NCBI GenBank assembly: GCA_000092065.1
Contig: CP000584.1
Length of the DNA: 64,000 bases
DNA from: Ostreococcus lucimarinus
Lineage: Eukaryota
Strand: one strand, 5' to 3'
Below the pieces are notes generated by a model that was not told the DNA's origin, did no database searches, and saw nothing but the letters and a program-made list of their open reading frames with translations. The position numbers were made by a program, and so were the translations under genes. Shown piece after piece: positions 11,124 to 63,925 of the stretch (position 1 is the stretch's first letter; each line of letters begins with the position of its first letter).

Positions 11124-12230
11124 CTATTGCTTGGCAATTTGCGCGAACGATTGCCGTAAGCCGTCGACGGTTTTGCGAAACGAAGCGAGCTCGGCAGATT
11201 GCTTCTTTACCGTCGCTTCGAGGTCCTTGACGCGCGACTCCAGCTTGGTGATGTGAGATTTAGACCCCACATGGCTTTTGTCGAGTTCTGCATGCTTGGT
11301 TTCGAGGGTGAGAAGGGCGGTGTCGATCGCGCGAAGGCCTTCGCGCCTGTGCTCGTCGTCATCGACGACGGCTTGCGCCCACCTCTCGAGCGCGCTCACA
11401 CGCGTCGATACCTTGGTCTCGGCGGTATAAAGCATGCGCAAATGATTTTCAGCATTCTCAAACAGATGTTCAGACATTTTCCCTAGTCTGACGGGATGCT
11501 GGCATCCCAACTCAGCGTAAGGGCATTCCACTTCTCGCATGGCGCAGTCGCCTGCTGCGTGGGCTTCCATCTCTCCTCGGGCGATTTGCCGCCCACACTC
11601 CAGTCTGCAGTCGATGAGCTTGTAAGAGCATCGGTTGTCGTGTTTTTCTTGAGAATGCTTGCTGAAACTCGCGGGGCATCCTTCGTTCGAACACGAAACC
11701 GGAAGAAATTTACAGCTTATCTTGTGCTCAAACAACGCATCCTCATCCACACAAGATTTTCGACAATGCGCCTGAAAGTCCGTGTCGTAATAATCTCTTA
11801 CCAACCTAATGGCTAACTTGTGACGCTCCGCCTCGGGCCACGCGTCATCATTATCAAGAAGCAGTGTTGTCGTCGCCGCTACGCCATCCTCTGTAGAGGA
11901 AAACACACCACTCATAAGCCCTTTCTTCCCCGCCGTCCACGCGTTGATGGCGTTCGACAGGTCGACAAGCGTTCTGTTGCTCCCTTTCGCGCCTCTCACG
12001 AGCGCTTCTTCGAGTTCTTTCGCGCATTCCGTCGCACTTTTGAGTTTGGACGAAGTGGACGACAAAACGCTCGATTGAAACACAACGGCTCGAACGACGG
12101 CGTTGAACAGCGCGCTGGCGACATTGTTCGACGTAGAACAACACACGTGGTCGCACGTTAACCGTGACTCGGGCGCGGTTGACTCGAGCGCGCGAGAGGG
12201 AAGTTCGGACTCGGACGTGTCGTCGCTCAT
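11124..12230 (-). CDS. TRAF-type zinc-finger domain protein with a C-terminal coiled coil
   Basis: The Cys/His pattern FLPVSCSNEGCPASFSKHSQEKHDNRCSYKLIDCRLECGRQIARGEMEAHAAGDCAMREVECPY fits TRAF-type zinc fingers. It is followed by a heptad-rich tail (LETKHAELDKS...LESRVKDLEATVKKQSAELASFRK). Real ATG is at 12228-12230 and stop TAG at 11124-11126. Confidence 0.65.
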   Translation of the reverse strand: MSDDTSESELPSRALESTAPESRLTCDHVCCSTSNNVASALFNAVVRAVVFQSSVLSSTSSKLKSATECAKELEEALVRGAKGSNRTLVDLSNAINAWTAGKKGLMSGVFSSTEDGVAATTTLLLDNDDAWPEAERHKLAIRLVRDYYDTDFQAHCRKSCVDEDALFEHKISCKFLPVSCSNEGCPASFSKHSQEKHDNRCSYKLIDCRLECGRQIARGEMEAHAAGDCAMREVECPYAELGCQHPVRLGKMSEHLFENAENHLRMLYTAETKVSTRVSALERWAQAVVDDDEHRREGLRAIDTALLTLETKHAELDKSHVGSKSHITKLESRVKDLEATVKKQSAELASFRKTVDGLRQSFAQIAKQ

Positions 12231-19395: not shown

Positions 19396-20050
19396 CTCGA
19401 GTCTATTTCACGCGAAAACGTCATCGACACGTCAGTCTCTCGCACGCTCAATCGCCGCTCGTTCTTCGTCGCGCGCGCTCGCGCGTCCCGCCTCCCTTTG
19501 GGGTTTCTCCTTCATCCCATCGCCCCGCGTTTTCGCTTCCTCCCGCGCGCCCACGCCCACACCGCGTTCATAATCCACAACCACAATCAGCATTCAACCT
19601 TTCCTCGCCATCGCGCCCGCCCGCGATCGATCGCGCGCGTCCCGCGAGCTCCCATCGCGCGCGCGCGATCGGCCAACTAGGGCTTGCGCGCGCGGTCGAC
19701 CCGCGTGCCGTTCGCGCGCGTCGTCCCGCCCGCCGCCCTCGCGCGTCGCCGGCGCATCGTGCGTTATATCTTCCATCGCGTTCGCGCGCGCGCGCGCGTC
19801 GTCGCGTCGATCGTACCTCAGAAGCGCGTCTTGAAGAGACGGATGCCGTCGCGCCCGGCGCGGCGTCGCGCGCGCGAGACCATCGCCTCGTCGATTGACT
19901 CGTCGATTGACTCGAGACGTGGGACTCTACGTATTCAACGTCCGAAATGCGGATCATCACGGAGTGAAAATGAAAATCACACCGCGCGCGGCGCTTTTTC
20001 GAAGCGCAGCCGCCGGCGCGCGCGACGCCGCGGTCACCTCGCGACGCGCG

Positions 20051-51523: not shown

Positions 51524-54500
51524 TTATTTCCCTCGTCTCGCACGTTTCGTTTCCGCGAGGATGGAATCGACGCAAATCGCACATCGCACGTACTCGTAGA
51601 ATTTCGGGAGCTGAAAGCCAGACGGCGCCCACACTGGATGGTCGGCGATGGCGTCGAATGAGGCCCCGGAAGAACACGAATCGCAGAAAGCCCGCGAACA
51701 AGAGATGCATCGGAATGTGATGTGATTCGGTGACGCTTCTTTGAGGCACACCAAGCAACTATGTTGTGGACACTTCCAACCCTTTTGCGGAACGGTGCGA
51801 ATGTACGCGCACCCCATCGAAGTGATGCGCGGACACGAAATGCAGCGAATCTTCAAACCAGCCTTTTCCGGTGGAAGAAAGGCGGGCGGAATGTTTTTGC
51901 ACTGTCCAGGCACTCCACCACAGTACACGCAGTTGTGTTCGTGCAAAGTCCACCACGTGGGGTCTTCGACTTCTGCCCTCTTTTGCTTTCGTTCAGCGGC
52001 GGCGTCCCAGAGTTCGGCATCTTTTGAGGCGAATTCCGGAGGCACGTTCCCGTTCGCTGGAATTTTCTCGAGCGAAGACACGAGCGATTCCGGCGGGTTT
52101 GCAGATAACTTATTCAACGCAGCACCACGCTTCCACGCTATATCTTGCCCGTTGGTGCCGACGACTTTCATGAAGTACGTCGTGCGCTTCACCGGATCCA
52201 ATCCCCAAACTCTGTTCGCAATGCGCCACATGTTCATCAAATTCGGCGCACCAGAGGCGTCGATCTTACTCGAGAATTCGCCATCGAGTTGCAAAATAGA
52301 AGTAACGCCCGAAAGCAAACCTTGCTGACGTCCAAGATTGTGGAAGCTGCACAACAGAAAGGAGATGTTGTTCTCTGGCGCCATGGTGTTGAATCTCGCC
52401 GCAGAGTACAGCGCAACGCCCAAAGGCTGATCGGTTTCGTCCAAGCGAGCGTATTCTAACTTGGCCATACTCATCCCTTCCGCCGCGCTATTCAACGCAT
52501 TTTCATCCTCCGCGATGACTAGCACTTTCTGCGCCTGCTTGCGCATCGTCTGAAGGATATGCATGAGAGCGTCGACGGGATTCGTCTTCGCATCAATCTC
52601 AAACTGTAAAAACTTGGCCAGTGGCGCGGGAACGACGGGTGGTTCAACCACGCGCTCACTCGTGCTATGTACGATCAGATCTCTCCACTTTACCGGTAGA
52701 GACTTCGTACTTTGGCCCAGTCCTGGGAAAATGACGCGTCCCAAGGCGACGGCGTGAGGGCCGTCAAAGTCATCGGCTTTGCCCAACAAGAACGTGGATC
52801 CTGCTTGAAGAACTTTCTCTTGGACAGCGGAGGAAAGCGCGCCGACACTCGCCTCATTTCGCCAGTCGTCACAAATCACGCTCTTGAACATCGTAGTTTT
52901 CAACGCTTCGCATTGACTCATGCGCTCGTACGAAACGACGAGGTAATCATACGACAGTGCTTTTATCATTTGAACATTGTTCGCACTCTTTTCATCCTCT
53001 TCAGACATCAACGTGACACTACGCAGGGAAGTACACCAACGATGAAGATCAGCGATCCATAAGTGTGCTGTTTCCTTCGGGCAAAGAATCAAGTGCTGAC
53101 CCGGTTCGCGTAAGCCGTCTCGAACCCATTGAATAAAAGCGAGCGACGTGAGCCGCTTGCCCAGGCCCGTTTCAAAAGCAAGCAGCCCGTTCACGCCCAG
53201 CGAATGCAGGTTTCGCATCCAATGAATCGCGTCGATTTGATGTGACTTCAAATATTTCCAAGGCGCGAGATCCGCGTAAAGAGCTTTGCCTTGCGGAATC
53301 TTCGGCGCCAATCTGGTCAAATGATCCAACGCCGTTTTAATCTCTGCTTCCCCGAGTTCGTCACTGAGCGAATTCAAGCGACTCGCCTCTTCCGCTTCGA
53401 GATGTTTACAGGCGTCTTGCATATCCCGTAAGAGCTTGCTCGGGGCTCCTCCCTTGTGCGTCGAATCCAAGTAATGGCGCACGCATGTGATCGTCGCAAT
53501 TCGCTTTGCCTCAGCGCTCGTCGCCCGCGGGAAAACTTCCAGCGTCACATCTTTTTGCTTCTCTTCCTGCGCGCTCGGATGCGACTTTTGGGCGCTCGCA
53601 GTGCTTCTATTCGGATCCACAAATGCAGCGTCTTCCTCGTGCGATTGCGCCTTCACATCCCAAAACACATTCTTATTACGTAACATATCGCTCGTGCCAT
53701 CTTCGCGGTATCCACACGTGAGGAAACGCTGTTGCTCGAATTCGGGCGCGCTGTGCGCCTTGCAAAACACCATGGGCTGTCCTGATGCCGCTTGCCTCAA
53801 CATAATTTGTTTATCGGCACGCGCACATAGTGGATGAAACGCGGTATAACACTTGTGCATCGCGCACTGCGTGCACGCGCCTATTTCTTCACAAACCGAA
53901 CACTTCAATTTCATGCGTTTCGACTGAACGAGCAACATGTCGACAATGGGAGATTCCCCAGTCTTTTGATGACGCATGACTACTTCGGGTAAGTGCAAAG
54001 CGCACGCAAGATGCGCATGGTGACCCGGCGAAAGCCATGGTGTTTCGAATTTCGACGCTGGGACCACACGCACGAGTGCGCCACCCGGATGTGGGCACAA
54101 TGCACAGATACCCCTAGGAGTTCCACAGCTCACGAGCGGGCCTTTGGTGACGCCCTCTTTGCAACCAGTGCAGTACCAATCACCCTCAGGAAGGTTCTTG
54201 ATTCCGTAGCAAGACATGTGAACCTGAATTTCGCATCCGTCGCAGAAGACAATCTCATCCTTCGCATGCCACCAATCTGGCGCTTGATGGCCGCAGACGT
54301 GACACACATCGTAATCCTCGAGAGACGTCCTCCACAGCCTAGAAATATGCTCGGGAGGCGGCGGTGGCATCTTCCCACGTGGTCGAGTTTGATGCGGAGG
54401 GTTTTTAAGCTGACCCGGTTTCACGGGCTTTCCGTCCGGTGTCTTGCCGTATTGCAACACATGCAACTGACTCGCCAGTGCGTCAGCTTTTGCTTGCACC

Positions 54501-55117
54501 TTCGAGTGTTTCTTTCTCATCTCCTTGGCGTATGCCACGGCTCGATCAGCGGCGCGCTTTTTACTGACGGCAAACTGATACGCGCTCGCCGCCGCCGCCG
54601 CCGTCATCGTCCACTCTGGTAAAGATTCTGGCTTGCGTGCCTTGACTCGCTCGAGCACTTCGCCCATCGTTGGCGTCACGCGTCCACCATTCAAACTTTC
54701 CGGCCCGAGTGCGAACGTCTCCAAAAACGCCATTATCGACGTCGTCTTCATACTAGATTCATCCAAATCCACAATCGTCTCCGCGCGTTCGTCAAACAAA
54801 TCATCAAACTGCCCCGGCGCGTCAACTCTCGCTCCCTCCGCGTCGCTCTCGTCGTTCATCCCATACGTCCCATTCACCGTCTCTACCTCCATATCCTCCA
54901 CCGTCGCTATGCGTGCGTCTATATCCGCCATCCACGCCGGCTCTCCGTCTCCACCATCGTCTTCCTCGCCGTTCGCCGACGTCGTCTCGCCGTCGCCGTT
55001 GCCTCGCGAGCCGCCTCTTTCATTCCCGCTCCCCGCCGCCACGCGCGCCACGAGCGCCGCGATCGCGTCCTGTGCGCTCATATCCGCATCGCTCTCGACC
55101 GCGTTCGCGCCGTGCAT
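51524..55117 (-). CDS. SNF2-family chromatin-remodelling ATPase with PHD and extended-PHD zinc fingers
   Basis: The PHD is CHVCGHQAPDWWHAKDEIVFCDGCEIQVHMSCYGIKNLPEGDWYCTGC. The ePHD is GICALCPHPGGALVRV...HLACALHLPEV...LKCSVCEEIGACTQCAMHKCYTAFHPLCA. The SNF2_N is YLKSHQIDAIHWMRNL...GLLAFETGLGKRLTSLAFI...HLILCPKETAHLW. A helicase-C-like region and a C-terminal Cys-rich cluster follow. The first ATG is at 55115-17, and stop is TAA at 51524-26. Confidence 0.75.
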   Translation of the reverse strand: MHGANAVESDADMSAQDAIAALVARVAAGSGNERGGSRGNGDGETTSANGEEDDGGDGEPAWMADIDARIATVEDMEVETVNGTYGMNDESDAEGARVDAPGQFDDLFDERAETIVDLDESSMKTTSIMAFLETFALGPESLNGGRVTPTMGEVLERVKARKPESLPEWTMTAAAAASAYQFAVSKKRAADRAVAYAKEMRKKHSKVQAKADALASQLHVLQYGKTPDGKPVKPGQLKNPPHQTRPRGKMPPPPPEHISRLWRTSLEDYDVCHVCGHQAPDWWHAKDEIVFCDGCEIQVHMSCYGIKNLPEGDWYCTGCKEGVTKGPLVSCGTPRGICALCPHPGGALVRVVPASKFETPWLSPGHHAHLACALHLPEVVMRHQKTGESPIVDMLLVQSKRMKLKCSVCEEIGACTQCAMHKCYTAFHPLCARADKQIMLRQAASGQPMVFCKAHSAPEFEQQRFLTCGYREDGTSDMLRNKNVFWDVKAQSHEEDAAFVDPNRSTASAQKSHPSAQEEKQKDVTLEVFPRATSAEAKRIATITCVRHYLDSTHKGGAPSKLLRDMQDACKHLEAEEASRLNSLSDELGEAEIKTALDHLTRLAPKIPQGKALYADLAPWKYLKSHQIDAIHWMRNLHSLGVNGLLAFETGLGKRLTSLAFIQWVRDGLREPGQHLILCPKETAHLWIADLHRWCTSLRSVTLMSEEDEKSANNVQMIKALSYDYLVVSYERMSQCEALKTTMFKSVICDDWRNEASVGALSSAVQEKVLQAGSTFLLGKADDFDGPHAVALGRVIFPGLGQSTKSLPVKWRDLIVHSTSERVVEPPVVPAPLAKFLQFEIDAKTNPVDALMHILQTMRKQAQKVLVIAEDENALNSAAEGMSMAKLEYARLDETDQPLGVALYSAARFNTMAPENNISFLLCSFHNLGRQQGLLSGVTSILQLDGEFSSKIDASGAPNLMNMWRIANRVWGLDPVKRTTYFMKVVGTNGQDIAWKRGAALNKLSANPPESLVSSLEKIPANGNVPPEFASKDAELWDAAAERKQKRAEVEDPTWWTLHEHNCVYCGGVPGQCKNIPPAFLPPEKAGLKIRCISCPRITSMGCAYIRTVPQKGWKCPQHSCLVCLKEASPNHITFRCISCSRAFCDSCSSGASFDAIADHPVWAPSGFQLPKFYEYVRCAICVDSILAETKRARRGK

Positions 55118-55516
55118 ATCGCGCGTCGACGTCGCGCGCTTCCGACGAACGCAATCGAAGATTCCGCCGATTCCGAAAGATCGCGACGAATTCCCGTCGA
55201 TTCGCGCGCTCGCGGGCCGCCGCGGCGCGTCGACCGCGACCGTGACCGCGATTTCCGCGTGCGGTGCGCGCGCGGTCGCCGCGGATGTCGCGCGCGTCGC
55301 CGTGTGCGGAGCGGACGACTGCACGTCGACGCCGAATACTGTTTACCCATAGAAGACACGAAACGTCTCATTGGACGACCGAACGTTCGGTCGAACACAT
55401 CCGACACACCCGCGCGCGCGCCACGATCGCGTGGCCGCGACCGCGCGCCGATTCCAAACGCGATTATCGATCTTCCCGCCGGCGCGTCGCGGGTCGAGTC
55501 GCGCGTGGACGACGGC

Positions 55517-55724
55517 ATGCCGGCGCATCGTGAATTTGCGCTGACTGAATATTTCGTCTCAGTAGATGCGCGAAAGCGCGCGAACTGCGCGACGGACGCG
55601 GTGGACGGTTTCGTGAAGATCAACCACGGTCTATGCGTCGAGATTCCTCTCTTCGCGCGCGTGGGATTGGCGCTTACGAACGCGTTTTATTGGGTCCTGG
55701 CGTGGAAGTTGCTGCGTTCGACGG
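55517..55724 (+). CDS. CREST-superfamily (alkaline-ceramidase-like) membrane hydrolase, exon 1 of 2 (tentative)
   Basis: ATG is at 55517 (MPAHREF...LFARVGLALTNAFYWVLAWKLLRST). The donor ACGG|GTGAGG is phase 1. The 101-nt intron 55725-55825 ends in TATCAG|, with ACTGAC 27 nt upstream. Phase is restored to give ...RST-G-MFDDSQ... Confidence 0.4.
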
Positions 55725-55825
55725 GTGAGGCGCGAGCGAAGCGAAGCGAAGCGAAGACGACGCGCCGTTGGAAATGTTGCGCGAAACGTGAGACTGACGG
55801 CGGTGCGTGGAACGTGCGTTATCAG

Positions 55826-56445
55826 GAATGTTTGATGATTCTCAGTGCGCGCGTGATTTGTGTCGTTCGCACGCGTTTCACGTTTTGCTTGTTTTTGGCA
55901 TCGCGTCCGCTTCGACGGCGTACCATTTCTACCAGCTCGGTCTGGATCGAGAGATTTCGAGGGCGTCGCGCTCAGCGTGCGATTGCTTCAAATTTCGTGG
56001 ATTTACGCTACCTGGAACTGGTACGACGTCAAAGAAGGTCAAGGCTTCGCCGCTCAAGGTGACGTCGCTGAGGCAGCTTTCAGACGAGCGCGTCGGTTTC
56101 GACCGTTTACGCTCGGACTCTGCGCGAGATCTCTCTGCGAGTGCGGCATGTTCGCCGTCGCCGACGAAACCTTCGGTGACGACCATGTCTTTATATAATT
56201 ATCCCGGTGAGTTGGTGAGATGGCTGTGCGCGATGGACATAGGATGCGCAATCATCTACGGCGTATTTTGCGCGACTTGCTTCGGCGCTGAGAAGATTCT
56301 CAGCGCCGGTCGTTTGCCGACCGTATTTCTTGTCACCGCCATGATATGCCAGCGCGCCGAAAAATACTGGGCCTACGTCGTGTTACACAGCATTTGGCAC
56401 GCCCTGAGCGCCGCGCTCATGCTCGATTTCTTGCTTGCGCAGTAG
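55826..56445 (+). CDS. CREST-superfamily (alkaline-ceramidase-like) membrane hydrolase, exon 2 of 2 (tentative)
   Basis: There is a His in a TM (CRSHAFHVLLVFG, compare ACER SWCFH) and a C-terminal YVVLHSIWHALSAALML (compare ACER HAWWHILTGLG). A long Ser-rich loop separates them, and there are about 5 TM helices. It is followed by an AT-rich 3' region with AATAAA. Stop is TAG at 56443-45. Confidence 0.45.
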
Positions 56446-56540
56446 CGCGTCGAGCGAATATTGAATATTCTTTTTTTTTGATGCCCTCGTCGTCGCACCT
56501 TCTTCTGTACTCACTACCGTATTATTAATAAAATCAATCA

Positions 56541-57730
56541 CTAAAAGTGTAAAGACACGGGAGCACTCTCCTTCTCTTCCTTCTCCGCGGCCCTGCCACC
56601 TTCAGATCGGGCGTAGAACAAAATGTATCCGTGCTCGCTCCCCGCGGAGCCGCCATCCGTCGTCGAGCCAAAGACTTGTTGAAGCTGCTCTTCATCCACG
56701 ACTTCAACGCAATCGTCATCGTACAAGAACCAGCGATGATTATTCTTGGCGAAACACACGTAGTGTCCGTGATTAGGCCCGGAGCCGATGTGAACGACGA
56801 CGGCGAAAAGCTTATAACTCGCATCGGGATTCTCCGCTTCGTCTATCAAGTTGGGAATTTTCAATTCGGAAGGGAACACCACGCGATGATTCAGTTTCGC
56901 GTGCCTGCCGAGCGCCTCGATGTACTTGAACCGCTTCAAGTGTAACGACAATACTTTCGGCGCTTCATGAATCAGCATTCGCTTCTGCGCCTCGTGTAAC
57001 CCACCGCATCGATCGCACTGAAACTTGTCGTTTTTGTCCAACAACTCCTTGGCGCTGAAATTATTCAAGCACGCCGTGATGGAAGTGTTCTGCTCGACAT
57101 CAACCGACAGGTCCAAAAAGCACTCCTCTCTATTCGTCGTGTTCTCACACCATAAACACCGCGTCTGATTCGCCAGTTTCCCCTCGAACACATCGTGTAT
57201 CCACGTCTTCTTCCCCGGTTCCCACGCGCCGTCTCGCTTCAACTTCGTCTGTAAATTTTCGCAACACTCATTCAGCAAGAAGTTTAAAAACTCGTGCGCA
57301 TCCTGATGCATGTGTCCTCGAAACAACACGTTATCCTTCCTCAACCGTTCGATGAACGCCCTCGGGCTGACGTATCCCGTGCGTTTCGTTTGTCCCGAAA
57401 TCTCTCGAAACAGATCCCCGAGCGCCGCCAGCATGCTGTCGGGCGTCTCCTTTCCTCGTCCGCTCGTCGACGTCCCATCGTTCGCCGCCGCGTGATGTTC
57501 GATCAATCGTTCTCGAAACTCATCGCACGCGTACAGCGCCTGGAGCACCGAGTTACAGTAGCACGTGTTGCCAAAGTTTTCCAATCCAAAAAACTTTGCC
57601 GACGGTGGGAACGCGTCGCCGAGCGTCTTCGCGTTGACTTGCGCGCGCGCGCGTCGCCGATGACTCCCGCCCGCGCGTTCGCGTTCGGCGACGCCGCGGC
57701 GAGAGATTTGACAAAGTTTAGAAAGCCCAT
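56541..57730 (-). CDS. ubiquitin C-terminal hydrolase, USP12/USP46-like; N-terminus interrupted by a frameshift in a (GC)6-7 tract near 57641-57653
   Basis: The Cys box FGLENFGNTCYCNSVLQALY and His box GPNHGHYVCFAKNNHRWFLYDDDCV are present, with collinearity to USP12 throughout (QDAHEFLNFLLN, DLSVDVEQNTSITACL, LHLKRFKY). The catalytic-frame ORF has no ATG upstream of the Cys box. The only suitably placed ATG (57728-30, MGFLNFVKSLAAASPNANARAG...) is in the +1 frame and joins the main frame only if 2 nt are removed or 1 nt added within gcgcgcgcgcgcg. Stop is TAG at 56541-43. Confidence 0.65.
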
Positions 57731-57790
57731 GACCGGCAATGGCGAGTCGACGCGTGCGAGAGGTGAGTGCGTGAAATACAGTTGGGGAAG

Positions 57791-59875
57791 CTACGCGCGG
57801 GCGCACTCGCGAACGAAGGAGTCGAGCACGTCCTCGTACTGGGAGAGAAAGTGGTCGGCGATCATGGTGCGAGATAGGATGATCTTGCGGTAGACGTCTA
57901 AATCGACGTCGAAGAAGAGGGCGTGGCGGGACTCGCGGCGGGCTTCGTCGACGGCTTCGTCGAGGCCGGATTTGTAGACAAAGTGAAGGATTCGGCCGGC
58001 GGGGTAGAGTAAGACGGTGCCTCGCTTGGCGATGTCTTGGTCGGCGCGGGCGTCGCTTGACGCGGATTTGACGCGTTTGACGACGGGCTCGCGCTCGGAG
58101 TCGTCGCACGACGCGGTGTCGTCCATGCGCGGCGGCGGTAAGTCTGCGCCGTAGTAATCCGCCGTCATGAGCGCCTCCTCGTCTCCCAACAATTCGGCTG
58201 CTTTCATGACGGAGATGTCTTCTTGCATTGCCAGCACCTCTTGCGCCGCGTTGGCCTCAGCGCGATAAATCTTTTTCATATCGTCAGCGGTGAGCGGTTT
58301 CTGGAAGTCTTCGTCGAGCGCGATTCGAGCGCTCTCGATGTACTCCTGGAAATCGCGCTCCTCCTGCGACTTGGGCGAGGCGGCGGCGGCGTGCGCGTGC
58401 GCGAGATGGGCGTCGTGACAAATATCGGTCGCGAGCACGGTGGCAGAGATGGTGTCGCCTACTTGCTGATTCGTCTTGCTGAACTCAGTCTTGCTCTCGC
58501 CCGTCGGCTCTGCTCGCTCGAGCGTTTTCTTCTTCCTCGGTCGCGGGGGGACGATGCCGGCGATGAACGCCCCCGAGAGACTGGCTAATTTTGAACTCGT
58601 GTTACTCACGCGTTTGCCGATCAGCAGGCTTTGTCTGTACAGCGAACTCGACTCGACTAACTTATCGTGCCTTGTCTTCAATCCTTTCAGCGCGCGCAAC
58701 CACTGTGGGTACTTTTGTGGGCCGTAGTTTTGTTTTCCCAGAGCCGCGGCGGCGGCGGCGAAACGCGACGGCGTCGGTCCTCGAGCGCATTCCATCGCCG
58801 CGGTACTCTCTCTCCATTTATCCAACAATCTTTGCTCGAGCGCCGTACTCACGACTTCGCGCTGTAACTCGCTCACTTTGCTAAAACTAACCATCGGGAC
58901 TAAATCGGCGTTGTTCACGCACGTCGTTACGAAAGATCGACACGACTCGGCGAGCTCGCGACTCAGCGTCGACGGGCACGCGAAGGTGAAACAGTGCAAG
59001 CCCACTCGCTTGAACCTCGGGTCTTGTCGTAACATTTCGGTGAGCAACACCGCGACACCACCACCCAAGGAGTGCCCGACGATCTTCAGCTCGTACCCGG
59101 GGTGCGCCGCGAGCGAAGACAGCAAGTCGTCTTTAATCTTTCGCTCGAGAAATCTCGCCGTGGTGAGGAATCCGCTGTGAGCGTACCCGACGCGCAACGT
59201 CGCCTCCTCGTCATCCGACGTCGACACCATCGTGTGATGCGCGCACACCGAGCCAGTTAAATTTGTTATCATATCCTTCGCGCTGTGCGTGCCTCGAATG
59301 ACAAAAACCAACCGCTTTTCATCCTCGTCCCGAAACAACACGTACGCCGGCCGCATCATTCGCGGCGCCAAATCGCTCAACAAAATCGCCTCCTGACCCA
59401 CCCCTCCCTGCGCCGCCACCGTCTTCAAATCCGGCGCCCTGCGCAACGATTTCGAATACGTCAGCGCCATCTTTATCTCCCTCAAACTCTTCTCCCACGC
59501 CTCTTTCGCGTTCGAATCGTCCGCCGTCCTCGCCGTCCTGTTCAAACGCGCGCGCGTCCCGCGTCTCGCCACCTCTCTCGCGATCGCCCCCCCCATGTCT
59601 CGCTGCGACAGCATCCGCAGCGCCAGCACGTGATCCAACCGCCATATGTTCAACCGCGCCAGCGCTTCGCTCCAGCTCAACCGCACGACGCGCGCGAGTC
59701 GCGTCGCGCTCTCGCCCCACGTCGTCGGCGGTGGTGGCGCCGCGTCGAAAAGCAGCGACGACGCGCGCGCCGCGTCGTCGTCGCGCGCGCCGCTCGCGCG
59801 CGCGCGCACGAACGCGCAGAGCGCGCGCTGCACGACCGCGCGGTCGACGCCGCGCGCGACCCGCGCGGGGGGCAT
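57791..59875 (-). CDS. class-3 (fungal-type) lipase domain protein, sn-1 DAG-lipase-like
   Basis: The nucleophile elbow IVGHSLGGGVAVLL has a preceding YVLFRDEDEKRLVFVIRGTHSAKDMITNL (lipase_3 lid/oxyanion region) and a downstream LHCFTFACP. Real ATG is at 59873-75 and stop TAG at 57791-93. Its stop is 60 bp upstream of the USP gene start on the same strand. Confidence 0.7.
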   Translation of the reverse strand: MPPARVARGVDRAVVQRALCAFVRARASGARDDDAARASSLLFDAAPPPPTTWGESATRLARVVRLSWSEALARLNIWRLDHVLALRMLSQRDMGGAIAREVARRGTRARLNRTARTADDSNAKEAWEKSLREIKMALTYSKSLRRAPDLKTVAAQGGVGQEAILLSDLAPRMMRPAYVLFRDEDEKRLVFVIRGTHSAKDMITNLTGSVCAHHTMVSTSDDEEATLRVGYAHSGFLTTARFLERKIKDDLLSSLAAHPGYELKIVGHSLGGGVAVLLTEMLRQDPRFKRVGLHCFTFACPSTLSRELAESCRSFVTTCVNNADLVPMVSFSKVSELQREVVSTALEQRLLDKWRESTAAMECARGPTPSRFAAAAAALGKQNYGPQKYPQWLRALKGLKTRHDKLVESSSLYRQSLLIGKRVSNTSSKLASLSGAFIAGIVPPRPRKKKTLERAEPTGESKTEFSKTNQQVGDTISATVLATDICHDAHLAHAHAAAASPKSQEERDFQEYIESARIALDEDFQKPLTADDMKKIYRAEANAAQEVLAMQEDISVMKAAELLGDEEALMTADYYGADLPPPRMDDTASCDDSEREPVVKRVKSASSDARADQDIAKRGTVLLYPAGRILHFVYKSGLDEAVDEARRESRHALFFDVDLDVYRKIILSRTMIADHFLSQYEDVLDSFVRECARA

Positions 59876-60369
59876 CGCGCGCGCGTGTGCCGTCGCGGCG
59901 GTTCGCGGCGGTCGCGTTCGATCGGCATCCGCGTCGTCGTCGTCGTCGGACGCGGGAAAAAATAGGAGGCCCGTCAGTGGAGATGAACATCAAACGGTCT
60001 ACGCGACTGCGTGCGCAGAAAATCGATCCGGCGCGCGCGGGCGCGGTGGCGTCGGTGTCGTTACGGGCTTCGCCCGGGCGGGCTGGGCAGAGAAAGTCAA
60101 CAACGGCGACGGCGTCGGCGCGAGGCGCGCCCGTAATCGCGTCGAAGATCGAGAAACGAAATCGTCGACGACGAAATTTCTCGTCTCGTCATCAAGGATA
60201 AATGCACTCGTCGTCTGCAGGACGCCGACTACGTTTTTTTTTCCGCGGCGACCTCAACCGGCGTTTCGTGGCTGTCGTTTTCTCGCGTCGTCTCGACGCC
60301 TCGGACGCGCGTGACGTCACTTTACGACGCCGACGCGACGACGCACCGACGACGACGACAACGAAAACG

Positions 60370-60972
60370 ATGACGATGACGACGAAAACGATCACCGGGG
60401 CGCTCGTGTGCGCGCTGGCGCTCTCGGCGATGGTGCCAACCTGTTTTGCTAAAGACGTGACGTGGGACGCGATGGCGGACGCCGCCGCGGCGCCGGCGCC
60501 GGCGCCGGCCGACGACGCCGCGGCCCCGGCCCCGGCGCCGACGATGGACGGCGAGCGCACCGTCGTTGACGTCGCGATCGAAGATCCGAGATTCGCGACG
60601 CTCGTCACCGCGGTGGTGGCGGTGCCCGAAGTTCTGGATACGCTCGAGACGCCGGGGCCTTGGACCGTCTTCGCGCCGAGCAACGAGGCCATCGCGACGT
60701 TTTTGGCCGAAAACGGATTGACCGCCGAACAACTCTTGGCTTCGCCTGGTTTGGGTGATGTGTTGAAGAAGCACGTCGTCGCGAGCAAACTTCTCGCCGC
60801 GGACGCGGTGAACGCCGTGAGCGCTGGACCGATTACGCTGACGACGTTGAACGGCGACGTCGACGCGCGCATGGTCGACGGAACGCTGTACGTCGGTGGC
60901 GCGGCCGTCGTCCAGGTGGACATCATGGCGGACAACGGCGTCGTACACGTGATCGATCGCGTGATTCAATGA
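60370..60972 (+). CDS. secreted FAS1 (fasciclin) domain protein
   Basis: It has a signal peptide MTMTTKTITGALVCALALSAMVPTCFA. The FAS1 domain (FATLVTAVVAVPEVLDTLETPGPWTVFAPSNEAIATFL...LKKHVVASKLLAADAV...NGVVHVIDRVIQ) carries conserved H1/H2 boxes. ATG is at 60370 (an upstream in-frame ATG at 60202 would add an R-rich leader), and stop is TGA at 60970-72. Confidence 0.7.
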   Translation: MTMTTKTITGALVCALALSAMVPTCFAKDVTWDAMADAAAAPAPAPADDAAAPAPAPTMDGERTVVDVAIEDPRFATLVTAVVAVPEVLDTLETPGPWTVFAPSNEAIATFLAENGLTAEQLLASPGLGDVLKKHVVASKLLAADAVNAVSAGPITLTTLNGDVDARMVDGTLYVGGAAVVQVDIMADNGVVHVIDRVIQ

Positions 60973-61132
60973 TGATTTCACGATGATGCGCCGCGCGGCG
61001 CGATGCAAGACCCCCAACACACGACGAAACGATTTCCATGCAATACACTTTCGAAACTGACAATCGTTCGCGCGCTCCTAATTTTTGGCTACAATTCACT
61101 AAAATCTAAGGCGTCTAATGCGCCGCGAAAGC

Positions 61133-63925
61133 TCAGCTCGGAGTCGTCATGCACGTCGCGAGCTTCGTCGCGAGCGCGGCGACTTCGGGATCGACGGCGA
61201 TGCGCGCGGCGGTTTCGAGACCTTGACGCAAAGCCTCGAGGTGCGGCTCGATGGCTTTCAAAACGTCCTCGTCAGCCGCCAGCAAGGCGGTGGCGACTTT
61301 GGTGGCGCCCATTCGTGGGCCATCACCCGCGGCGTGGTCCCGAAGGATGTTTGTAACCGTTCGCACGAGCGTTACTGCGTGTGTTTCGTCCACGTCGCGC
61401 TCGGCGCCGTGGAAAATCATCATCAGCGCTTGGAGCGCCGCCGCGCGCACTTCTGGCTCGCCGCGGTGCTCGACGCAGGCGATGAGTGGAGGAAAACATT
61501 CGTCCATGAGCGAAGCCTTCTCGATCGACGGACGCCGCGCCGCAGCGATAATGACATTCATCATCGCGAGCCGCAACGACAAATCCTTCGTCAGCGCGTC
61601 GTCGACCCACTTTGGAACGCCTTCCTTTGTGTGGCACGCCAAATGCAACACGCCGCGAAGCGTCTCTCGCGCGCAATCAACGCGCTCGCGCGTGACGTCT
61701 TCATCACCATCCAACTCCACGATGAGCGCCCGACCTGAAGATGCTTTGCTTTCGTTCAGCGCGAGCAGAGGCGGTTTCGTATCGAGAAGCGCGCTCGACG
61801 TCTTCTTCTTCGCCGATTGATGAGGACTTTCCTTGCGTGCCTCGATCTCGGCGACGATGAGAGATGCCAGCGTTTCCATGGCGCCCATGTGTGCCTTGCT
61901 GAGCTCGACGTCGTCCTGTGCGTTATCGACCCACGTCAAAATGTCCATCGATAGACTCCTGACTTCGCGCCGCGAGCGTTCCGACAGTGCCGATTCTCCA
62001 CGAAGAGCGAGGGCGGAGTTGCACGAGAACATGCACGAGCGAACGCGGGCGAGATCATCGCTCACGCTTCGTGCTGTCTCTCTCAGGCGTCGCAAGTCCT
62101 CAAACAATTCTTCGTCCAAAATATTTTGCGGTAATCGTCCGAACATCTCCGAGCACACGCGGCGCACGTCTTCAAACTCACCGCGGATGTTCAACATTCG
62201 CCGTCGCATGCACTTTCGAATCGCGTCTTTGTTCTCGCTGGATTCATCCCACACCGCGACTGGAAGCACGCGCAAGAGTAAAAGTGGTGCTAAACGGTCG
62301 AAAACTTCACGCTCGTTTACGCCTTTATCGATGCTCTGCGTTGATAATTGTCGCGCGCACGCCTCGACAACGTAATCGCTCGCCGGCGGCTTTCCGATCC
62401 AGGGCGTCAGCGCCGCGACAGCCTGATGCAACGCGGACGAAGAGGGTGATCGAAAAATAGACGATGTCAACGTCTGAACGACACTTTTCCACTCATTCGC
62501 GCGCACGGTTTCAGCGAAACGTGATAGTAGCTTGACTGCGCGAGAGATTTTCTCCCCGAACGTCGCGACGTCGCTGGACATCGCCGGCGCGAGCAGAGTG
62601 GCAAAGTACGTATCAAGCGCCGCCGCGGGAGACGGTTGCTGTTGCAGCGTCGCCACGACGGCATCACCAGCTGCTGAACGCTCTTCCGAATCTTTTGACA
62701 GCAAAAGATCAACGAGCACTGGGAACACGTTCGACGGCGTCGCGTGCGCAAACACCTCGGCCGCCGCCTTGCGCGATTCCAAATCTCTGTCGCCCAACCT
62801 TGGAAGTATCGCGCGTGTCACCGTCGCGAGCGTCTCTGAGCTCAAATTCGACCCTTTCTGTCGCATGATTTCCATGAGCACGCGCAACGCGCTCACCTTC
62901 GCACTTCTCGAGCTCCCACCGCAAATCTGCAATATTCGCGTCAAGGATTCGTCGCGCGGATCTCTCGCGACTAAATCCGCGATGAGTCTCGCAAAGCCGG
63001 CGGAAATCACGTCGTCACCTTCTTCGACGAGTGGGAGCACTCCACCGAGAAGAGATTCGCTTTGTTCCGTCCATCCTAAGTGCTCGGGCGCGAGTACAAT
63101 GCGTATCAATACAGCCGCCACGCTTTGCGCGGTTTCGTTCGAGCAGCGAAGCGCCGGGAGCAGCGCAGATCCGGCGTACGTTTGCAACATCGAATCCAAT
63201 GTCGCAGCCGTCTCTTCGCTCACCATCGAAGATAAAACCTGACGATTTTCGTGATCGATGCCTATTCTCCCGAGGTGCAAACCCACCGTGATGAGTGCGT
63301 GCGCGACGCCGTCGCCCGCGCCCGCGTCGTCTGAATTCACCATCTCGCTCGCCGCGCCGAACGCCGATTCCAACGCCGTCACCATATCCCCATCCGAATT
63401 TTTAGACCTCACCGAGAGCGCAGGCACCCAATCACTCCACGCTCGATTAAACAAGCGCGATTTCACGCGCAACGCGCGCGCCGCCGCATCGTCGCCGCCC
63501 TCTACGTCGCGCGCGCTCGCCGCGAGCGACGCCAACCGCGCACGCGCCCTGTCGCAACACTCCCTAAACAATCCCGACGACCCGCGTTCGTCGACTCGCG
63601 CCCACGAGGACACGACACCGATTATTTCGTCGCACACCTCGAACGAATCCATCAACGTGCGCTCACCGCCGCTCGCACTTGCGTCCGAATCGTTCGCCGC
63701 CGCCGCTCGCGTACTCACCGCCGCGAACGCGTCCGCCGCGGCCGCGCTCAACCGCGTCGGTGACCCCGCCGCGCCCTCCCTCGCGATCGCCGCGAGCGAA
63801 ACTAAAACCCCTTTAACGTCAAACACGTCTTCCGCGCGCACGCCATCGCCGCGCGCGATCGCGCTCGTCCCCGCGCACGCCGCCAACGCCGCGCGCTTGT
63901 CCCGCGACGCGTCCAACTTCTTCAT
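61133..63925 (-). CDS. HEAT/ARM-repeat protein (maestro-HEAT-like), possibly 5'-truncated by the window edge
   Basis: It is a >900-aa alpha-helical repeat protein with recurring LLxxL/ALxxL HEAT-like units (e.g. EVRAAALQALMMIFHGAE, RKAAAEVFAHATPSNVFPVLVDLLLSKD). The first ATG within the window is at 63923-25. The frame is open up to 63979, so the true start may lie beyond nt 64000. Stop is TGA at 61133-35. Confidence 0.55.
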   Translation of the reverse strand: MKKLDASRDKRAALAACAGTSAIARGDGVRAEDVFDVKGVLVSLAAIAREGAAGSPTRLSAAAADAFAAVSTRAAAANDSDASASGGERTLMDSFEVCDEIIGVVSSWARVDERGSSGLFRECCDRARARLASLAASARDVEGGDDAAARALRVKSRLFNRAWSDWVPALSVRSKNSDGDMVTALESAFGAASEMVNSDDAGAGDGVAHALITVGLHLGRIGIDHENRQVLSSMVSEETAATLDSMLQTYAGSALLPALRCSNETAQSVAAVLIRIVLAPEHLGWTEQSESLLGGVLPLVEEGDDVISAGFARLIADLVARDPRDESLTRILQICGGSSRSAKVSALRVLMEIMRQKGSNLSSETLATVTRAILPRLGDRDLESRKAAAEVFAHATPSNVFPVLVDLLLSKDSEERSAAGDAVVATLQQQPSPAAALDTYFATLLAPAMSSDVATFGEKISRAVKLLSRFAETVRANEWKSVVQTLTSSIFRSPSSSALHQAVAALTPWIGKPPASDYVVEACARQLSTQSIDKGVNEREVFDRLAPLLLLRVLPVAVWDESSENKDAIRKCMRRRMLNIRGEFEDVRRVCSEMFGRLPQNILDEELFEDLRRLRETARSVSDDLARVRSCMFSCNSALALRGESALSERSRREVRSLSMDILTWVDNAQDDVELSKAHMGAMETLASLIVAEIEARKESPHQSAKKKTSSALLDTKPPLLALNESKASSGRALIVELDGDEDVTRERVDCARETLRGVLHLACHTKEGVPKWVDDALTKDLSLRLAMMNVIIAAARRPSIEKASLMDECFPPLIACVEHRGEPEVRAAALQALMMIFHGAERDVDETHAVTLVRTVTNILRDHAAGDGPRMGATKVATALLAADEDVLKAIEPHLEALRQGLETAARIAVDPEVAALATKLATCMTTPS

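Follow-up and report, generated by a model that had tools for sequence, protein, structure and literature searches.

The single-base frameshift that splits a USP12/46-type deubiquitinase gene in the deposited genome of Ostreococcus lucimarinus CCE9901 is, with a probability that we put at about 0.88, an omission in the reference sequence, the gene itself being ordinary, intact and single-exon in this strain. We favor this reading because a read set of identical haplotype, which shows no mismatch to the reference over 10 kb, contains the missing base. The window, by which we mean the whole 64,000-nucleotide stretch that was analysed (contig CP000584.1 of assembly GCA_000092065.1), carries the gene on its minus strand, and the coordinates of the features are collected in Table 1.

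Table 1. Features of the deubiquitinase locus, in window coordinates.
Feature	Position	Strand	Remark
USP12/46-type deubiquitinase gene (plant UBP3/UBP4-like), ATG to stop	56541..57730	-	Two frames as deposited; 396 aa once the base is restored
True start codon ATG	57728..57730	-	N-terminus MG(F/L)L(N/S)(F/L)(V/I)KS kept in sister species
Catalytic Cys codon (Cys57 of the intact protein), Cys box GNTCYCNS	57561..57563	-	Aligned with the human USP12 Cys box
Catalytic His codon (His323), His box GPNHGHYV	56763..56765	-	Coordinates computed from residue number; aligned to USP12 GSGPNRGHYI
(GC)6+G tract gcgcgcgcgcgcg	57641..57653		Reference lacks one C (plus strand) between 57652 and 57653
Upstream neighbor, class-3 lipase gene, XP_001417482.1 (O. 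lucimarinus CCE9901)	57791..59875	-	Exact protein identity

In the deposited sequence, the ATG on the minus strand (57730-57728) starts MGFLNFVKSLAAASPNANARAGVIGDARARKSTRRR... and meets a stop after 75 codons, while the catalytic frame, phased on 57731, reads ...SHRRRARAQVNAKTLGDAFPPSAKFFGLENFGNTCYCNS (also written ...SHRRRARAQVNAKTLGDAFPPSAKFFGLENFGNTCYCNSVLQALY... from the same phase) and extends for 370 codons to the stop at 56541. Direct reading of the minus strand places the two frames 1 nt apart, as a first-pass annotation made from the sequence alone had described. Its statement that the catalytic frame lacks an ATG also holds, since ATG, GTG and TTG are all absent from that frame between the upstream stop (57791) and the TTG at 57584, and with the frameshift in place the first in-frame ATG lies downstream of the Cys box. 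The distance of about 48 codons that it gave between the ATG and the Cys box needs correction, the ATG being 56 codons upstream of the catalytic Cys57. Evidently, those who annotated the reference saw no start codon that this gene could use. The NCBI entry (XP_001417481.1 / ABO95774.1) is a “predicted protein, partial” of 344 aa that begins KTLGDAFPP and matches the catalytic frame of the window exactly. This model is truncated at both ends, as it is also short at the 3′ end, where it finishes with ...YARSEG, 22 codons before the stop at 56541 (region 56541-56610). Upstream, the lipase ORF (57794-59875, minus strand) corresponds exactly to its database protein. Only 60 nt (57731-57790) lie between the lipase stop and the deubiquitinase ATG, so that the deubiquitinase promoter and 5′ UTR must share sequence with the lipase gene or with its 3′ UTR.

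The two frames can be joined at the tract either by gaining 1 nt or by losing 2 nt. The first-pass annotation had offered both repairs, and both do rejoin the frames, but related sequences show the 1-nt gain and not the loss of a GC unit; removing a GC unit would restore the frame at the cost of a protein one residue shorter than every orthologue. The correct repair is therefore +1 nt. On the gene strand, the lost base is the first G of the codon for Gly27 (GGC), and its restoration gives gac-Ggc-gcg-cgc-gcg-caa, coding D G A R A Q; the frameshifted form of the tract is 12 nt long (gacGCGCGCGCGCGCaag) and the intact form 13 nt (gacGGCGCGCGCGCGCaag). Slippage of a GC unit, as proposed earlier, does not describe such a lesion, which consists of one missing base, a CC read as C at the edge of the tract. 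The tract itself is unremarkable because (GC)6 runs are common in the window, with nine matches against 0.61 expected from dinucleotide-preserving shuffles (about 15-fold over-represented), and the real anomaly is the frame break. Runs of (GC)6 or longer are found window-wide, for example at 19784, 26232, 32898, 32959, 42299, 59796 and 63940.

With the extra base in place, a continuous ORF of 396 aa is obtained, MGFLNFVKSL...GVIGDGARAQVNAKTLGD. Its product matches the Pfam UCH profile (PF00443) over its full length, 1-254 of 254, at residues 48-373 (E 7.8e-67; 226 bits, against a cut-off of 23.9). Among proteins of solved structure, those most similar are human USP12 (E 1.3e-103, with a phmmer alignment covering residues 22-374) and USP46 (E 1.8e-101), with the next family, represented by yeast Ubp8, well behind at E 1.9e-33. 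Cys57 in GNTCYCNS and His323 in GPNHGHYV align with the same motifs of human USP12. Judged from these matches, the product is an ordinary USP12/46 orthologue (plant UBP3/UBP4) of peptidase family C19, and the complete domain, the Cys and His boxes and the identity of the closest solved relatives all bear out the family assignment made in the first-pass annotation. Like human USP12 and USP46 (5K1B, 5K16, 5L8W, 5CVM, 6JLQ), the protein has a full UCH/USP domain, the Cys box GNTCYCNSVLQALY and the His box GSGPNHGHYV. It also has two CxxC pairs, CLWC at 192 and CDRC at 239, where USP12 has CLTC and CEEC, and it is of similar size (396 aa, compared with 331-376 residues in the solved constructs). 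Unlike the human proteins, it begins with an Ostreococcus-specific leader of 26 aa, MGFLNFVKSL..., which is conserved only among close relatives.

A comparison with orthologues had been suggested as a check on the frameshift, and it shows that N-terminus, spacing and GC tract are all retained in sister species. The orthologues of these species, which are 72-77% identical, begin MG(F/L)L(N/S)(F/L)(V/I)KS, and in every species compared the ATG frame encodes the 26 N-terminal residues. The ATG-frame N-terminus does belong to the gene, as had been supposed, and MGFLNFVKSL... is the true start, kept both in sister species and in the intact contigs described below. Spacing at the junction is exact across species (GD-G-ARAQV, AD-P-ARAQV, AD-A-ARSEV, AD-S-ARAEV). 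In one sister species, at 77% protein identity, the CGCGCGCGCGCGC tract recurs at the same length and in frame, coding P-A-R-A-Q; its syntenic locus, with fasciclin, lipase, deubiquitinase and SNF2/PHD genes, has the DNA gacCCCGCGCGCGCGCGCagg, which contains this alternating tract in frame. The tract encodes a conserved Ala-Arg-Ala and is stable in evolution. More widely, the deubiquitinase is conserved across Mamiellales and plants with its spacing intact.

Within the species, a search with the conceptually repaired protein retrieved a 99%-identical protein of 396 aa (P0001), which heads a cluster of 77 members; many of the full-length ones read ...GVIGDGARAQVNAKTLGD... The DNA was compared in 19 wild contigs (L001-L019) taken from assemblies of JGI, ENA and Logan; almost every contig represents a different sample, and identity to the window is 98.0-99.8%. 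The extra base is present in 19/19, as gac-G-gcgcgcgcgcgc-aag on the gene strand and as a C between 57652 and 57653 on the plus strand. A scan of JGI metagenome contigs that allowed tract lengths of 8-20 nt gave three matches, all of 13 nt and two of them new. With L022 and L024, which also have the extra base, the metagenome- or SRA-derived contigs number 21 in total, at 98.0-99.9% identity. Including the contig of identical haplotype considered below (L025), the base is found in 22 of the 22 contigs that cover the tract, and tract length does not vary among them. The break in frame that had been placed at 57641-57653 is thus confirmed, both in its position and by the extra base in related contigs.

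These observations bear directly on a suggestion of the first-pass annotation that the locus is phase-variable, with (GC)n slippage toggling the deubiquitinase on and off. The layout does resemble that of bacterial-type contingency loci, in that a short dinucleotide repeat separates the start codon from the catalytic domain and the frame is broken in one sequence. However, the uniform tract length in 22/22 contigs, the recovery of 13-nt tracts only when 8-20 nt were allowed, a change of 1 nt at the tract edge instead of a 2-nt unit, and the in-frame tract of the same length, encoding the conserved Ala-Arg-Ala, in a sister species at 77% protein identity all set it apart from such loci. We conclude that the deubiquitinase gene is not a member of that class, and phase variation is barely credible as an explanation of the frameshift.

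Other parts of the window show variation among the wild contigs. An (AGCGA)n pentanucleotide repeat at 55738-55757 is length-polymorphic, with one unit fewer in L008 and L011 and two fewer in L003; it lies between GTGAG and an ACTGAC...-like motif and may be inside a small intron. In L012-L014, the region at 59900-60200, which lies upstream of the lipase gene and has a G+C of 0.64-0.72, is hypervariable: small indels and substitutions are numerous there, and the coding DNA that flanks it is >99% conserved. Near-identical copies of a TRAF-type domain protein, XP_001417470.1 (an exact match to 11127-12230 of the window, minus strand), are found in metagenome sources under the misnomers “archaellum component FlaC,” “homogentisate solanesyltransferase” and “chromosome segregation ATPase.” Some of these copies are on chromosome-sized contigs of 925,621 and 931,813 bp, which indicates that public data contain further, nearly complete assemblies of this chromosome.

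The decisive comparison is with a contig of the same haplotype. The reference differs from all the wild contigs covering them (about 20) at five substitutions (59539, 58549, 58145, 55635 and 55554), two of which alter the lipase protein, where the reference has R113 and P443 and the wild contigs have G and S, respectively. The exact reference lipase protein occurs in only one other record, the Logan contig SRR1179203_90 (L025; 20,352 bp). Over 10,085 bases of this contig compared with positions 53792-63875 of the window (10,084 bases), mismatches are absent and the one gap corresponds to the same extra G. L025 carries all five reference-private SNPs, yet not the deletion, and its deubiquitinase gene is called as 396 aa. 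In the remainder of the 10 kb compared, the reference is free of error, including at a second (GC)6 tract (59796-59807), where it shows no discrepancy with this independent contig; the reference is accordingly not error-prone in general in this region, which counts against an omission. Since L025 shares the five private SNPs, the simplest interpretation is that it comes from the same clone and not just from the same species, and the five positions are genuine private alleles of the cultured clone. We infer from sequence identity alone that SRR1179203 is CCE9901; a literature search for this accession found no citing paper. The five private SNPs had at first suggested that the deletion could be one more real variant private to the strain; this is resolved by L025, in which these SNPs are combined with an intact tract. 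An independently generated and assembled read set of the same haplotype is therefore without the lesion, and the lesion is not reproduced in independent data for the strain, as far as SRR1179203 can be taken as this strain. Of the explanations put forward in the first-pass annotation, the contig favors sequencing or assembly error.

The same annotation had also proposed a strain-specific null or pseudogene allele, of which the intact contig of identical haplotype leaves only a small residual. In its remaining form, a genuine loss-of-function frameshift would be present or fixed in the CCE9901 subculture that was sequenced, with the SRR1179203 lineage and the wild populations intact, and we consider this unlikely. 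Apart from this base, the reference matches L025 exactly over 10 kb and is hence apparently accurate elsewhere, and with the first in-frame ATG located after the Cys box a frameshifted allele would be null. Cultures of Ostreococcus do gain frameshifts, as a 1-nt deletion split a glutamate-receptor-like gene of O. tauri between 2001 and 2009 (PMC4378021). Nevertheless, this reading needs a private mutation that is missing from a read set of identical haplotype and from every other assembly, at a site prone to base-calling loss, in a gene conserved in Mamiellales and plants with intact spacing. The balance of such events in O. tauri also argues against it: the Sanger-era reference of 2006 received 3,342 indel corrections after Illumina mapping (Blanc-Mathieu et al. 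2014, PMC4378021), only three genuine indels arose in 8 years of culture, and errors in the reference thus outnumber real culture indels by about 1000 to 1 (PMC4378021). There is a slim chance that the deletion is real in the reference DNA preparation, in which case a null allele of the sole USP12/46-type deubiquitinase would have arisen spontaneously and become frequent in a CCE9901 laboratory lineage. If so, the enzyme would be dispensable or even disadvantageous in culture, and the GG/(GC)6 junction would be a mutational hotspot.

Searches for the frameshifted allele found no support for it beyond the reference, in assemblies or in protein look-ups. Exact look-ups returned no match for the 78-aa ORF of the ATG frame or the 347-aa TTG ORF (each with an L or M start), nor for the 421-aa GTG ORF, and no contig is on record for XP_001417481.1; a homology search with the out-of-frame N-terminal extension gave one match, over the in-frame 27 residues only. 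These are weak negatives, as they depend on the choice of start by the gene caller and, for the homology search, extend to cluster representatives only. JGI proteins of 335 aa that start VLQALY (P0126 and P0128) were considered as frameshift products; for P0126 this was rejected, as both of its contigs place it within about 30 bases of a contig end and are truncation artefacts.

A further alternative accepts the frameshift in the genome and has expression rescued by programmed -1/+2 ribosomal frameshifting, transcriptional slippage, a non-AUG start, or a short intron or upstream exon. Near-cognate codons are available in the catalytic frame (ACG at KTLGD, “aag acg ctc,” and the TTG 57584 at GLENFG), and if SRR1179203 were RNA-seq, its extra G could in principle arise at the RNA level. 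The metagenome contigs, however, are genomic and encode the extra base in DNA, which makes recoding unneeded, and every species conserves the 26 N-terminal residues in the ATG frame. An intron separating the ATG from the Cys box was also rejected: on direct reading, no GT...AG interval between the ATG and the tract has a fitting length and phase, those present being very short (27 nt, for instance) or out of phase, and the ORFs are continuous elsewhere. The first-pass annotation had likewise argued against an intron, and this agrees with the continuous ORFs of the other assemblies. Rescue of a truly frameshifted gene is accordingly very improbable.

Returning to an omission in the reference, we infer that it arose during sequencing or base-calling, when a CC doublet (GG as read on the gene strand) next to the self-complementary (GC)6 run would have lost one of its bases. 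G+C-rich palindromes are classical sites of band compression and collapsed peaks in Sanger (dideoxy) reads. Band compression is thus a plausible, though not demonstrated, cause of the lost base; in predictions of single-strand DNA folding, the tract does not exceed shuffled controls in stability. The case is similar to the reference errors of O. tauri, in which a single-base indel breaks a conserved ORF and independent short reads of the same strain remove it (PMC4378021). It differs in scale, as the O. tauri reference had thousands of errors, whereas that of O. lucimarinus shows one discrepancy in the 10 kb compared. In the cell, translation most likely begins with the ATG at 57730, proceeds via ...GVIGDGARAQVNAKTLGD... 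into the Cys box (Cys57) and on to the His box (His323), and yields a protein of 396 aa.

There is no new biology in this locus, and the value of the finding is one of curation. The reference of O. lucimarinus CCE9901 needs one C inserted between 57652 and 57653, and XP_001417481.1 / ABO95774.1 should be a complete USP12/46-type deubiquitinase of 396 aa that starts at MGFLNFVKSL. Comparative studies that score O. lucimarinus as lacking this gene, or as having a truncated copy, would be misled.
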